The notes under the pieces: model-generated
Databases searched by the model: none
Seen by the model: only the letters and a program-made list of their open reading frames with translations
Told to the model about the DNA's origin: nothing
In this document: piece by piece, positions 8,650 to 53,645 of the stretch
How the letters are laid out: each line of letters begins with the position of its first letter
How positions within the stretch are numbered: the first letter of the stretch is position 1
Sequence record: MH494197.1
DNA length: 64,000 nt
From: Escherichia phage CMSTMSU
Reading direction: 5' to 3' (one strand)
Program-made: the position numbers and the translations under genes

Positions 8650-10119
8650 CTATAGATTATTTATATAAAGGACAAGGAAGACCCACAAAGGTCTTCCCTG
8701 TTTATAATCAATCTTCAGTTTTGGCGTGAAGTCAATCTTACGTAGTTCTTTCAACTCATCTTTATAGATGTTCCAAATCAAATCATGATTCGACAGGAGA
8801 TTGTTATATTCATCCATTAAATCCAAGTTATGTTGAATATCAGCTAGTACTGATTGATAATTGTCTTGGGTCCAACGATATGATGGGAAGTTTACGATGC
8901 TTTGAATATTCTCATCGGTTGCTTCGATTTCAGTGTTTAATGATTTAACAAACTCAACCATTTCTGAACGGTTAGCAAAACCCTTAACCTTAGCAATCAT
9001 ATCATTATCAAAACATTCTTTGATTAGAATCTTATAACGTACTTCAGCAGCACAATCATCAAGTTTCTTCTCATAGCGTTTCACATAGTATTTGAAACGG
9101 AATTCAACAAAGTCCTTAATCAAATCCATTGTGTTATCATAGACTTTAACCTTACCATTCTCACCTAGAACAGTTAGGATTTGTGTCATCTTCTTATGAA
9201 TGCCAAAGTATTCAATTACATCTTTCTCCACCCATTTAGCAGATGTTCCGCGTGGTAATTTGATTGTAATATCAATAACATCAGTACTATCATTATCATA
9301 ATCACGAATATCACCATCATCGCTCATCTTAATGAGTTTCTCGATGAATTTCTCAATACTGTAGTTAGGTGGTAGACCTGTTACTTTAACAGTACTGGCA
9401 TCAATTACTTGTGCTTTACCATAGAACTCATATTTGTTTTCATCAAGCTTAGTTACGATATCACTTGCACCACATGAAACATAGTATGGAGTCATTTCTT
9501 TTAATGGTTTTTATCAATAGCACGAATACAGTTATCAATAACATCTTCAATCTTATGTGGTAGAATTGTACTCTTATAACCTACTGACATACTATCGTTA
9601 CCAAACAAAGATAGTGGGATAATAGGTAAAAAGAAACTTGGTTCCATTGTAGTACCATCATAGTTCTCTTTCATTGGAATAATGTCAGAGTCACGCAGTA
9701 CTAACATTTCAGTACTTTTATTCTTTTAACATAAGTATAACGAGCAGAAGCTGGAGTACTGTTTACTTGTGTACCAAAACCACCACGTTTACCAATGAGT
9801 GGGTAGTTGTTTACTACTGGTGATGCTAGGTTCTGGAGAGTTCCAGATGCAGATGTATCACCGTGTAGATAGATACCATCACTAATCATTTTACCAGCAC
9901 ATGATACAGTTTTGATTTCACCACTAACTTTTGAGAGGGTGAAGATTGCTTTACGTTGTGAACTCTTAAGGCCATCAATCCCGGGATTGCACGGTCTAGT
10001 GTGTACATTGAATATTCTAGTGATGTGGTATTCACATAATCAGAACTGTTATAATCTAGTAGAGTTAGTGTTTGGTTATCGATGCTTTGATTTTCGGTTT
10101 TTACTTTTAGCCATTCCAT
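8650..10119 (-). CDS. gp52: DNA topoisomerase II medium subunit (T4 gp52-like, GyrA-type)
   Basis: YSMYTLDRAIPGLMALRVHNVK at N-terminus; fragments 9886..10119, 9701..9889, 9501..9707, 8650..9495 in different frames. Confidence 0.8.
8658..8665 (-). promoter_or_regulatory. T4-type late promoter TATAAATA
   Basis: exact TATAAATA on the minus strand about 20 nt upstream of the start of gene 6880..8638, just downstream of hairpin 8676-8697. Confidence 0.4.
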
Positions 10120-10133
10120 TGTCTCTTTGTAAA

Positions 10134-10165
10134 GGGAACACCATGTTCCCCATTAATCTATATTA
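10134..10165 (-). repeat. repeated intergenic element, copy 1: TATAGATTAAT box plus GGGAACA/TGTTCCC hairpin
   Basis: minus-strand sequence AATATAGATTAATGGGGAACATGGTGTTCCC in the 44-nt gap between the two topoisomerase genes. Confidence 0.6.
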
Positions 10166-12158
10166 TTCCATCCAGTTCTTACGATCATCAGCACGTTTCT
10201 TGTTGAAAATCAAATCAAGAGTTTCACCAAGGCGACCATCATCTGTAATCGCTACTGCAACACTGTTAGTGAATGCATCACGGAAGTTTGCTTTTTCTAA
10301 CGTACCCAATCCTTTCGCACGGGTTGCTTTCCAACCTTTCCAATCATCTGGGTTGTATTCATGTACATCATGACCATAGTAGTACTTGGATTCCTTACCT
10401 TTCTCTAGAATGATGAATGGTGTTTTGAATATATACACAAATGGATTCTCTGGGTCTTGGAATAGTTCAGGCCAGAATTTGTATAGGAAGTTACATACTA
10501 AAGCACCAATGTTCTTTCCATCCTCATCTTCGTCGGCACAGATATAAAGCTTACCATAGTTAAGGTCTGCTCTTTCCGCTTTTACACGGAATCAGGTTGA
10601 TACTCGCCATTATATCATGCAATGCCATTGAATCCATTAATTCTTTGGTTTTCTCATTACCACTGACGTTCATAATTTTACCACGCAATGGTAGAATACC
10701 ATGAACTTTAGGATCACGAGCACTCGCCATGTTGGAAATAGCAGAATCACCCTCAGCAATTAGTAGGATGCATTTGGAACGATCCGTACCTGTACTGTCC
10801 AATAGTTTTGCAACTTTACCTTTCAGTAGTTTTTAGCTAGACGGCGATCTTCTTCTGCATCTTTCTTGTTGGTACGAGCAGCACAGCGTTCAAAAATTTC
10901 ATCAATCCACTCTTTGTTCTTCTTGACTAATTCATCGAACCATTCAGAATTCATCGCTTGTTGAATTGGACGAATAACGTTTTCGTTGGTTAGTTTTGAT
11001 TTAATCTGTGAGTTGAATGATGGTGCTTTCATCGTTGTTACGTTATAAATCAACAGACCTTCTTCAATATCAGAGCGGTTAGGTTTCATCTTGCGTTTCT
11101 TTGATTCTTTCTCTAGAGCAGTTCCTACTCCTAATGAGAAGAATTTCTTGAATGTATCAAGATGTGTACCACCATCAAATGCTGGGGCATTGTTAACCAA
11201 ACCATGCATATGGAAGTTATTGTTCATACCCGATACTGCATTAGGAACAATGTAGAAAGTACTGTTAAAGTTGAATGATTCATCTTTAACGTTCAATTGC
11301 ATCAGTTTAGATGCGTTGAATAGTGCTTTTTCGGTAGTTCCTTTAATTGCAATACGCTTACCGTTAAGGAAAATCTTATAGGTAGGGTTAGCAGCAGACA
11401 TTTCTTTCAAAATACTGTATAGCAATTCGGTTGGTAGTTTACGGTTCGGAAATACCTCAGAACTCAAAGTGAAGCGAATTGTTGTTCCAGTCTTATCTGC
11501 TTGAACCTTACGAATAGTTGGTTCATGTACATGAAGTTCAGGAAACATAATAGTTCCTTCTTCGAACTTCTGATTGAACTTATAAAACCGTCATAACCGT
11601 CATTGCTACTTTGTGTTTTATACGGGCGACCTTGGCGATGGATTTCAAGTTCAGCTTTAGAACTTACAATCATTGCAACTGAACCACCCAAACCATTCTG
11701 ACCGATTGTTTCATCACGCTTCGAATCATCAAAGTTACGACCAGTTTTAGTTTCAGTCATTACCATTGTACATAGGTTTTTCTGATACTCAGGAACATAG
11801 TCAATTGGAATACCACGTCCATTATCACTGATCTCAAAGGATAACTCTTCCTCATTGAAATCAACTTTGAGTACTGGCTCTTTTGTACCAGCTTTTTAAA
11901 TTCATCTAAGCTGTTATCGATAATTTCACGAGTAGCAGTTAGAATTGCAGGAACCCACTCAACGTTTTTAACTTCATATCCAGACTCACCAAAGATCAGT
12001 ACTTGACTTTCGTGAACAGAACGTGAACCCAGATACATCTCAGTACGCAAGCGAGCATGTTGATAATCGTTTAGACGTTGTACATCATGTTCCTGAAGAA
12101 CAGCACTTTCTTTCTTAGCCATTTGAATTCCTTTTAATGTCTCTTTGTCATGCAACAT
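10163..12158 (-). CDS. gp39: DNA topoisomerase II large subunit (gp39 plus gp60 equivalent in one gene, GyrB-type)
   Basis: GHKL ATPase region, Toprim ILLIAEGDSA, C-terminal RAKGLGTLE; five fragments 11760..12158, 11464..11766, 10823..11548, 10560..10802, 10163..10438 in shifted frames. Confidence 0.8.
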
Positions 12159-12191
12159 TGTATCATCAATGCTTTGTTTGTCTCAAAAATA

Positions 12192-13058: not shown

Positions 13059-13715
<657 letters not shown>

Positions 13716-24110: not shown

Positions 24111-24130
24111 ATATATTCCTTTATATTTGG

Positions 24131-24146
24131 AAAGATTAATCCGCCG
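24131..24146 (-). promoter_or_regulatory. intercistronic hairpin between nrdA and nrdB
   Basis: ATCCGC-CGAA-GCGGAT stem-loop between the nrdA stop (24161) and the nrdB RBS. Confidence 0.35.
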
Positions 24147-52547: not shown

Positions 52548-52785
52548 ATCAGTAACCTCCAGTGTTTGCAAACCATTTACCACGGAAATAAAGATTAGCA
52601 CCTTTATCACGGGTAAAACTTCCAACTTCATAGTCTTCTCACCATTACATTGTGGACAATCATGAGGTTCTTCACGATTGGCAATTTTACAATCTTTTCT
52701 AAACTGTGTTTACATTCTTCTTTTCACAACGATATGTATATAATGGCATTTTTGTCTTCCTTTACTTATTTTTAAATCAAAATTT

Positions 52786-52817
52786 GGGGAACTCCATGTT
52801 CCCCATTATTTATATTA
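52786..52817 (-). repeat. repeated intergenic element, copy 2: TATAAATA box plus GGGGAAC/GTTCCCC hairpin
   Basis: minus-strand sequence ATATAAATAATGGGGAACATGGAGTTCCCC, near-identical to 10134-10165. Confidence 0.6.
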
Positions 52818-53544: not shown

Positions 53545-53645
53545 TATATAATTCTCCGTTTTATTTGTTAATCAAAAATGTTTTGTATGCTTCAGATTAC
53601 TACAAGCACCATTATATCTCGTGAATGATGCTTGTCTCATTTTTA

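Follow-up and report, generated by a model that had tools for sequence, protein, structure and literature searches.

What kind of signal lies between the two topoisomerase II subunit genes of this phage, and why does a similar one follow the sliding clamp gene? The window analysed is a stretch of 64,000 nucleotides from sequence record MH494197.1 (Escherichia phage CMSTMSU). A preliminary description had joined an AT-rich box and a GC hairpin into a single element of about 30 nt, present in two copies. It had proposed a late promoter with a 5' stabilising stem-loop, a terminator-promoter cassette, an RNA processing site or a protein-binding operator.

Sequence and genomic setting of the two copies

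Two near-identical elements are indeed present at the sites described, with coordinates correct to within one base. On the minus strand, the copy 1 locus (10165–10131) reads TAA-TATAGATTAAT-GGGGAACATGGTGTTCCC-TTT, and the copy 2 locus (52817–52786) reads TAA-TATAAATAAT-GGGGAACATGGAGTTCCCC. The pattern GGGGAAC-N5-GTTCCC(C) occurs twice in the window, at 10134–10151 and 52786–52804, again on the minus strand. With at most one mismatch, GGGAAC-N5-GTTCCC has two matches in the window (0.04 expected), and the same number was found for the 22-nt core TAATGGGGAACATGGWGTTCCC (0.00 expected). The reference for all genome-wide counts was the complete genome of fEgEco12 (374,733 bp), a 98% identical relative, in which the hairpin is present exactly twice. 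An upstream similarity, AACTGG (AACTGGnTG), was considered as an extension of the repeat and was attributed to chance, as fEgEco12 reads ACAGG and the two coding frames differ.

Copy 1 makes up most of a 50-nt gap between the genes for the large (gp39-like) and the medium (gp52-like) subunit of topoisomerase II. The TAA stop codon of the large subunit gene (10163–10165), which matches the end of fEgEco12 g418, is followed on the minus strand by the AT-rich spacer TATAGATTAAT (10152–10162), which is the 'box' of this copy, and by the hairpin GGGGAACA-TGG-TGTTCCC (10134–10151). Directly after the stem come a T-run (10131–10133) and the conserved ribosome-binding region ACAAAGAGACAATGGA with the ATG (10114–10112) of the medium subunit gene (together 10112–10130).

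Copy 2 is located in a 67-nt gap between the sliding clamp gene (fEgEco12 g359) and a small zinc-ribbon gene. Here the TAA stop codon (52815–52817, minus strand) is followed by TATAAATA, a box of the T4 late promoter type (52807–52814), and the hairpin GGGGAAC-ATGGA-GTTCCCC (52786–52804). A spacer (AAATTTTGATTT...) then leads to the Shine-Dalgarno sequence AAGGAAG and the ATG (52749–52747) of the zinc-ribbon gene (together 52747–52785). The zinc-ribbon gene encodes an FmdB-like protein (Pfam Zn_ribbon_8). It is followed by a GroES gene and by a virion-protein gene, the third gene 3' of copy 2, which matches the virion structural protein family phrog_13349 (E = 7e-111). Gene names at both copies were taken from the annotation of relatives.

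Source phage and quality of the assembly

Nine jumbo phages of Escherichia (EC.P1, fEgEco12, BF17 and others) match the 3 kb around copy 1 with 97–99% identity, and the PBECO4/121Q/G17 group of the genus Asteriusvirus does so with ∼87%. More remote kin are jumbo phages of Klebsiella, Salmonella, Erwinia and Serratia. The window comes from an Asteriusvirus jumbo phage, a giant T4-related coliphage.

Alignment of the whole window with fEgEco12 revealed 651 mismatches and a single insertion, against 298 deletions, 231 of them in homopolymers, which shows the window to be a homopolymer-compressed assembly. Its genes lie nearly all on the minus strand, and the list of open reading frames is broken up, with the topoisomerase II large subunit gene in five pieces. 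Short runs of G, C, A and T are under-called and have to be read with caution; in copy 1 this concerns the CCC and the TTT. All close relatives have GTTCCCC for the 3' arm and TTTT for the tail, where the window has GTTCCC and TTT; the final C of the arm was lost from the window by a homopolymer deletion. Copy 1 reads GTTCCCCTTTT in the relatives and, with its flanks, TAA-TATAGATTAAT-GGGGAACATGGTGTTCCCC-TTTTAC. Programmed frameshifting was considered for the zinc-ribbon gene that follows copy 2 and was rejected for the same kind of reason: the window has an A5-to-A4 homopolymer deletion.

Folding and terminator quality

The hairpin fold proposed in the preliminary description was reproduced for both copies. 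The stems are 7–8 bp long with four G-C pairs at the base and loops of 3–5 nt, and start 10–11 nt after the TAA. Their folding energies are -11.6 and -12.8 kcal/mol; with z-scores of -1.6 to -1.9, the folding of the two gaps stands out only modestly. Both copies have the stem of an intrinsic terminator, that is, a GC stem-loop of ∼5–14 bp with a loop of 3–8 nt, in sense orientation after a stop codon. Predicted terminators are already annotated at both copies in G17, at copy 1 in UE-S1 and at copy 2 in Munch. With these ARNOLD/TransTermHP-type terminators of the G17, UE-S1 and Munch records our elements share the sense GC stem soon after the stop codon and, in copy 1, the UUUU. They differ in the U-tract, which is short in copy 1, displaced by AAA in copy 2, and unconserved.

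The terminator score d was computed with our own implementation of a d'Aubenton-Carafa-type formula and gives relative values only. By this measure, copy 1, with a tail of UUUU followed by ACAAAG, is borderline (T score 3.1, d = -1.7). Copy 2, the tail of which is AAAUUUUUG with AAA ahead of the U-run, is not terminator-like (d = -30 to -43). At the copy 1 site, JNE01, Munch, CBB and Serratia BF lack the U-tract (d about -50). At the clamp site it is found only in Munch, CBB and Serratia BF, and the orthologs of CBB (d = +3) and Serratia BF (d = +39) are both classical terminators. At both sites, then, the U-tract is variable across the orthologs while the hairpin is kept. Since the copy 1 orthologs of JNE01 and of the phages outside Asteriusvirus lack a U-tract, canonical intrinsic termination cannot be the conserved function there. 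Because it is the hairpin that is conserved, and not the U-tract, we consider 3'-end protection and attenuation beside termination. A literature search for transcript maps and transcript-end data for Asteriusvirus and relatives found none.

Conservation and covariation of the stems

Orthologous gaps were taken from eight phage genomes for the copy 1 site and from nine for the copy 2 site, representing four to five genera. As MAFFT misaligned five of the 15 hairpins, the arms were delimited by hand for the counting of pairs. Every one of the 15 distinct orthologous stems is paired throughout. The foot of three G-C pairs (GGG/CCC) is invariant, and pairs 4–7 switch among A-U, U-A, G-C, C-G and G-U. 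The loops are 2–6 nt long and have no common sequence (TGG, CTA, AGT, TAT, GTAAT, ATGAA and TG are among them).

At the topoisomerase site, the hairpin is GGGGAACA-TGG-TGTTCCCC in fEgEco12, G17 and UE-S1, and GGGGGACA-TTG-TGTTCCCC, with a G-U pair, in ph0011. JNE01, also with a G-U pair, has AGGGAGTGCA-GGG-TGTACTCCCT. Munch and CBB have GGGGTAC-loop-GTACCCC, and Serratia BF has GGGTAC-loop-GTACCC, which is one pair shorter. At the clamp site, GGGGAAC-loop-GTTCCCC is found in most orthologs. Variants are GGGGAAT/ATTCCCC in ph0011, GGGGAAA/TTTCCCC in RaK2, GGGGGAA/TTCCCCC in Serratia BF and GGGAGC/GCTCCC in CBB. Compensated stems together with variable loops argue for selection on the fold rather than on a sequence recognised by a protein.

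In every relative and at both sites, the stem starts 7–14 nt after the upstream stop codon. The clamp hairpin is kept irrespective of the next gene, which is the zinc-ribbon gene in Asteriusvirus and RaK2 and a phosphoesterase gene in Munch, CBB and Serratia BF. In RaK2 the copy 1 hairpin is replaced by an open reading frame for a Hef-like homing endonuclease. Its ATG begins at the third base after the stop codon of the large subunit gene, and it ends just before CAAAGAGGCAATGGA-ATG, so that the ribosome-binding region of the medium subunit gene is kept. The association of the hairpin with the upstream gene and the replacement in RaK2 indicate that it belongs to the upstream cistron as a 3' appendage and is dispensable for expression of the downstream gene.

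GC hairpins elsewhere in the genome

To place the two copies among similar structures, hairpins of -7 kcal/mol or better were counted in the same-direction intergenic gaps of fEgEco12. A GC hairpin is present in 146 of the 286 gaps, or in 112 after removal of the second terminal repeat. The arms had been described as unusually GC-rich for the genome, a view which these counts contradict. Of the 112, 41 combine a 5' arm containing GGG with a 3' arm containing CCC, and GGGGA is found in 19. When pairs of hairpins are ranked by shared sequence, the pair of copies 1 and 2 is only the 29th, and many hairpin types recur. Both hairpins are thus ordinary members of the ∼110 intergenic stem-loops of this phage. 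The two 'repeats' belong to the ordinary punctuation of a T4-related jumbo phage genome and not to a new mobile or regulatory family, and their importance is modest.

A dispersed repeat family was considered and rejected. Regular-expression scans of fEgEco12 (arms of 7, 6 and 5 bp, loop, TAATGGGG) detected only the two copies; they also matched one unrelated terminator after the tail sheath gene. The preliminary description had made its case depend on further copies in the genome or in relatives. The genome gave none, and the relatives do have the orthologs: by BLAST, the 43-nt element is found at two places per genome in nine close relatives and at one in the PBECO4 clade, where the loop of copy 2 differs. 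A search of the whole window against Rfam at gathering thresholds gave no match, and around both copies only far sub-threshold ones.

The strand on which these structures act can be read from their imperfections. In fEgEco12 intergenic hairpins with a single internal non-Watson–Crick position, this position is G-T on the transcribed strand in 24 cases and A-C in one. This bias argues that the folds are selected as sense-strand RNA. Among the intergenic structures of fEgEco12 are also several hairpins with a CUUCGG loop. The early region holds ∼14 modules per terminal-repeat copy, each consisting of a consensus sigma-70 promoter, a hairpin of the GGGGAGAA...TTCTCCCC type and a ribosome-binding site, in this order. 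The hairpin of these modules begins 12 nt after the -10 element.

Promoter signals around the two copies

The likeness of the box to the T4 late promoter, on which the preliminary description had relied, holds for one copy only. The box of copy 2 is a perfect TATAAATA in fEgEco12, G17, UE-S1 and JNE01 and thereby conserved in four Asteriusvirus clades, with the two-base spacing to the stem kept; in ph0011 it is TATATATA. The box of copy 1, TATAGATT, has two mismatches to TATAAATA and is the most variable part of the gap. In relatives it reads TATAGACT, TATAGGCT, GATAAGAA or TCATTAGT while the hairpin stays, and no conserved promoter is seen. From its sequence we consider it not to be a promoter. 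The idea of a single element of box plus hairpin accordingly survives only in its hairpin part, which is conserved across genera; the joint element dissolves as the copy 1 box drifts.

The motif TATAAATA is associated with structural genes. It occurs nine times in fEgEco12, with seven of the nine in intergenic regions. Six of these precede virion or structural genes, including those for the major capsid protein and its neighbour and two baseplate genes, with three virion proteins among them; the seventh is copy 2. The relaxed motif ATAAATA has 49 sites, of which 27 are intergenic (∼10% of the genome is intergenic), and most of these are 12–65 nt upstream of structural genes. A late sigma factor of the gp55 type is encoded by fEgEco12 g336 (phrog_12791, E = 1e-152; phrog_234, E = 1.5e-16). 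The same late motif has been proposed for the relatives CBB and GAP32 by Buttimer et al. (PMC5259590). The copy 2 box is therefore predicted to be the late promoter of an operon of zinc-ribbon, GroES and virion-protein genes, for which it is a credible candidate. A peculiarity is the sequence that follows it, ATGGGGAAC (GGGG), whereas AT-rich sequence comes after the box at the other late-type sites (see also PMC5259590). The GGGG may weaken the promoter.

The combination of late box and hairpin is not a general one. At the other TATAAATA sites of fEgEco12, no GC hairpin follows directly, and just one of the ATAAATA sites is followed by a hairpin, at a distance of 12 nt. Normally the hairpin comes first and the late box after it, an example being 8701–8658 of the window (minus strand), where a strong 13-bp hairpin (8701–8672) ends the topoisomerase gene pair and TATAAATA (8665–8658) precedes the next virion gene. 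Box and hairpin are separate modules, which happen to lie side by side at copy 2.

Neither copy has a sigma-70 promoter (TTGACA-N17-TATAAT). A sigma-70 or middle-type promoter within the boxes was rejected: there is no -35 element, and a TGn before TAATAT is present in copy 2 and missing in copy 1. A divergent promoter of the CBB type (TGAAACG + TATA; PMC5259590) was also rejected, with one match in fEgEco12, in a coding region, and none near the copies. A middle-type motif, GAGACAAAC-N11-14-GMTATAAT (G(A/C)TATAAT), was found before the genes for the clamp, the primase, the topoisomerase large subunit and two other genes of the replication region. The sites in the window are GAGACAAAC-N11-GATACAAT (12157–12184, minus strand) before the large subunit gene and GAGACAAGC-N11-GATATAAT (53611–53638, minus strand) before the clamp gene. 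These promoter-like sites would drive the transcripts which read into copies 1 and 2, respectively.

The topoisomerase unit has the order middle-type promoter site, large subunit gene, copy 1, medium subunit gene and strong 13-bp hairpin. In the gap between its two genes, no promoter-like sequence was found, so that copy 1 can be at most a partial stop: with a medium subunit gene that has no promoter of its own, termination at copy 1 cannot be efficient.

The T4 late box spans positions -13 to -6 relative to the transcription start. Applied to copy 2, this spacing places +1 within the 5' arm, on its fourth G. RNA beginning at this position folds with -5.4 kcal/mol and without the stem. RNA with the stem, from a start at the first G or from read-through, reaches -15 kcal/mol.

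Comparison with known elements

The PeSLs (promoter-early stem-loops) of T4-type phages are short intergenic cassettes of a strong sigma-70 promoter and a stem-loop, in many cases with a G-run and then a C-run; promoter and stem-loop often overlap, and PeSLs terminate transcription in vivo (PMC2839356). Degraded PeSLs keep the stem-loop without the -10 element, and a version with a middle promoter (PmSL) is known; PeSLs or PmSLs are hosted by RB49, phi1, T4/PST and KVP40/nt-1 (PMC2839356, PMC4122927). Both our copies resemble PeSLs in that an intergenic GGGG...CCCC stem is placed between a stop codon and the next Shine-Dalgarno sequence and ATG, and copy 1 resembles a degraded PeSL. The box, however, is of the late type in copy 2 (TATAAATA) and of no recognisable kind in copy 1, and not a sigma-70 or Mot-type promoter. 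Further, there are two copies within a conserved replication module, whereas PeSLs occur by the dozen among orphan genes in hyperplastic regions. As the sigma-70 promoter and the orphan-gene setting are missing and the copy number is low, the two copies are not PeSLs. In this phage, the genuine PeSL-like cassettes are the modules of the early region.

In the T4 genes e, soc, 49 and I-TevI, late promoters are located within the 5' strand of an inhibitory hairpin (PMC3014915). In copy 2, TATAAATA is likewise set such that late transcripts would lose the 5' strand of the hairpin, unlike longer early or middle transcripts, so that the two classes would behave differently. The T4 hairpin differs in that it sequesters the Shine-Dalgarno sequence or the AUG, and so blocks translation. 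Such sequestration was rejected for both our copies, the ribosome-binding sites being 5–30 nt 3' of the stems and unpaired or weakly paired in the folds. As the ribosome-binding site of copy 2, about 25–30 nt beyond the stem, is not paired with it, a hairpin bypassed there by late transcripts would be a terminator or attenuator and not a translational block.

Stable intercistronic hairpins are present in T4, including those with a C(UUCG)G tetraloop. Like them, the elements described here are stable GC stem-loops located between the genes of a phage related to T4; unlike the UUCG hairpins, they have ordinary loops of 3–5 nt (UGG, AUGGA).

A gap of ∼50 nt with a hairpin in a topoisomerase gene region also called for a comparison with the translational bypass of T4 gene 60. 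This was rejected, as the two genes cannot be joined in one frame. Between the stop codon and the hairpin there are 11 nt, and a single GAA codon matches, in a frame that ends after 17 codons. The medium subunit gene has its own Shine-Dalgarno sequence and ATG, the Munch ortholog has no matching downstream codon, and RaK2 holds a whole gene in this gap.

Proposed function and alternative explanations

We consider it probable, with moderate confidence, that the two copies are intercistronic stem-loops of the sense RNA which act as weak terminators, attenuators or 3'-end stabilisers, and that copy 2 is combined with a late promoter. Each stem-loop would form after the stop codon of a replication gene that is read from its own middle-type promoter, and the most likely target of its action is the upstream transcript. 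Working as a weak intrinsic terminator or attenuator, it could halt some of the RNA polymerases that pass; by blocking 3'-to-5' exonucleases, it could shield the upstream message. At copy 1, the hairpin would be only a partial stop, and the medium subunit gene would have to be expressed by read-through. At copy 2, TATAAATA occupies the space from the stop codon to the stem. Late transcripts may start there at the fourth G of the 5' arm and, being without the hairpin, run freely into the zinc-ribbon, GroES and virion-protein genes. Among the mechanisms proposed beforehand, the terminator-promoter cassette is the best fit for copy 2.

A stronger version, less likely than not, may be put forward tentatively. 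Copy 2 would then be a 'promoter-late stem-loop', a variant of the PeSL idea with TATAAATA joined to the 5' side of a terminator or attenuator stem, inside which gp55-type late transcripts would start and so be unable to fold it. These 30 nt would be a temporal gate which stops clamp transcripts of the middle phase and lets late ones pass, and copy 1 a decayed copy of which only the stem is left. If the arrangement at copy 2 works in this way, a known T4 trick, the late start inside a hairpin, would be extended from the control of translation to that of termination. Elements of this kind are already known, and the late promoter within a terminator at copy 2 is the one possibility that would be mildly novel.

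A different reading is that the box (TATAAATA, TATAGATT or the shared TAATAT) is a promoter with its start at the first G or immediately ahead of it, which would give the downstream message a protective stem-loop at its beginning. A transcript started at this G would keep the hairpin at its extreme 5' end, an architecture which exists in the ∼14 early modules per terminal-repeat copy, and the copy 2 box is a perfect late motif. We nevertheless regard this as unlikely: box and stem are 2–5 nt apart against 12 nt in the early modules, which puts a normal start inside the stem, and from a T4-spaced start on the fourth G the stem cannot form. The late promoter with a 5' stabilising stem-loop, as originally suggested, is hence a poor fit. 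It is also at odds with the unconserved box of copy 1, with the other late-type sites, which lack an adjacent hairpin, and with a hairpin which follows the upstream gene when the downstream gene changes; RaK2 lives without copy 1 altogether. An RNA processing site would imply that a host or phage endonuclease cuts the AU-rich strand beside the stem, the protected 3' or 5' hairpin then uncoupling the decay of the neighbouring cistrons. AU-rich single-stranded stretches do flank the hairpins, and copy 1 orthologs that keep the hairpin without a U-tract would suit a post-transcriptional role. RNase E is, moreover, a major factor in T4 mRNA decay (PMC3014915). The flanks vary, however, and no conserved cleavage motif was found beside the stems, so that we give this explanation little credence in its own right; it overlaps the stabiliser half of our preferred interpretation and does not exclude that half.

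Two further explanations concern the recurrence of the element. The 22-nt core might be the operator of one RNA- or DNA-binding regulator which co-regulates the downstream genes, in the manner of translational repression by gp43 or RegA in T4. Within the clade the copies are near-identical, loop included; both are in the replication gene module, and a small zinc-ribbon protein is encoded directly after copy 2. Against this stand loops which vary in sequence and length at both sites, the two loops differing from each other already in the PBECO4 clade, as well as stems which covary, ribosome-binding sites outside the hairpin and the loss of copy 1 in RaK2. We therefore disfavour the protein-binding operator of the preliminary description and regard it as very improbable. 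Finally, the hairpins might serve as short homologies for gene gain and loss, with any transcriptional role being secondary. Gene content has changed at both sites (phosphoesterase gene present or absent after the clamp hairpin; homing endonuclease in RaK2), and PeSLs have been reported as recombination linkers (PMC2839356, PMC4122927). The two indel events are anecdotal, however, and the compensatory evolution of the stems indicates selection on the fold. There are only two copies, which lie in a conserved core rather than a hyperplastic region, and recombination from one to the other would cost the phage 44 kb of essential genes. This is the explanation to which we attach the least probability.

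The searches made around the two copies also yield a map of signals for this group of phages, consisting of the late box (T)ATAAATA, the middle-type box and the early PeSL-like modules of promoter and hairpin.

Repeated promoter and hairpin modules

The 21-kb terminal repeat of fEgEco12, a 98%-identical relative with a complete genome sequence, carries about 14 near-identical modules in each of its copies (1–21000 and the second copy). Each module reads TTGACA-N17-TGTATAAT, followed after about 12 nt by a hairpin of the GGGGAGAA...TTCTCCCC type, ACTAA, a Shine-Dalgarno sequence and the ATG. The module thus places a promoter-proximal 5' hairpin behind a consensus sigma-70 promoter, and in this it resembles the PeSL (promoter-early stem-loop) cassettes of T4-type phages (PMC2839356, PMC4122927).

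Two other cassettes are repeated in fEgEco12. One is a terminator-like hairpin whose stem contains the -35 hexamer, with TATAAT lying just 3' (AAAGGGTTGACTTCGGTCAGCCCTTT ttgcTATAAT); the other consists of TTGACA flanked by AGTACT palindromes. Both are overlapping terminator/promoter units, present in about 15 copies (example sites at 13478, 19495, 315188, 321127, 326447 and 327017).

A candidate middle promoter

A promoter-like motif, GAGACAAAC followed after 11–14 nt by G(A/C)TATAAT, recurs ahead of replication genes, including those for the clamp, primase and topoisomerase large subunit. It occurs on the minus strand of the window at 12157–12184 and 53611–53638, and in fEgEco12 at 231800, 238216 and 244693. 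This motif is probably the middle promoter of the phage. It is unlike TGAAACG, the motif reported for CBB (PMC5259590), a more distant jumbo phage relative; no promoter of the CBB type was found in the present phage, the one match in fEgEco12 lying within a coding region.

Other intergenic hairpins

Several intergenic hairpins of fEgEco12 have C(UUCG)G tetraloops, for example those at 183913, 205917, 242521 and 276584. This extra-stable loop is known from intercistronic regions of T4. Between 334000 and 348000, fEgEco12 contains about a dozen paralogous genes in tandem which are annotated as ‘chromosome condensation regulator’. A variant of the hairpin GCCAGTACT...AGTACTGGC is found 3' of each of these paralogues, and therefore the hairpin has been duplicated along with the gene.

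The gap between the topoisomerase II subunit genes

The sequence ATGGAAT is present twice on the minus strand around this gap, 54 nt apart: at 10114–10119 and at 10166–10172. The copy at 10166–10172 belongs to the last codons of the large subunit gene (ATG GAA TAA), and that at 10114–10119 lies around the start of the medium subunit gene (ATGGAATGG). Because of this repeat we checked for a bypass across the gap in the style of gene 60, which was rejected: the two reading frames do not connect, and phage Munch does not share the repeat. In Klebsiella phage RaK2 and its Klebsiella relatives, the gap is occupied exactly by a gene for a Hef-like homing endonuclease. In RaK2, this gene takes the place of the hairpin, while the downstream ribosome-binding region is retained.

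Differences between the window and fEgEco12

Alignment with fEgEco12 revealed 298 deletions in the window, 231 of them in homopolymers, and one insertion. Frameshifts are apparent in most window genes: the topoisomerase II large subunit is split over five ORFs (10163–12158), and an A5-to-A4 deletion disrupts the zinc-ribbon gene (52700–52749). The window looks like an uncorrected long-read assembly, and its broken genes do not appear to be real pseudogenes.

A gene-sized indel also separates these 98%-identical phages. About 790 bp of fEgEco12 (242545–243336), comprising the hypothetical gene g398 between the genes for the large and beta subunits of ribonucleotide reductase, are missing from the window at about 24124–24138.
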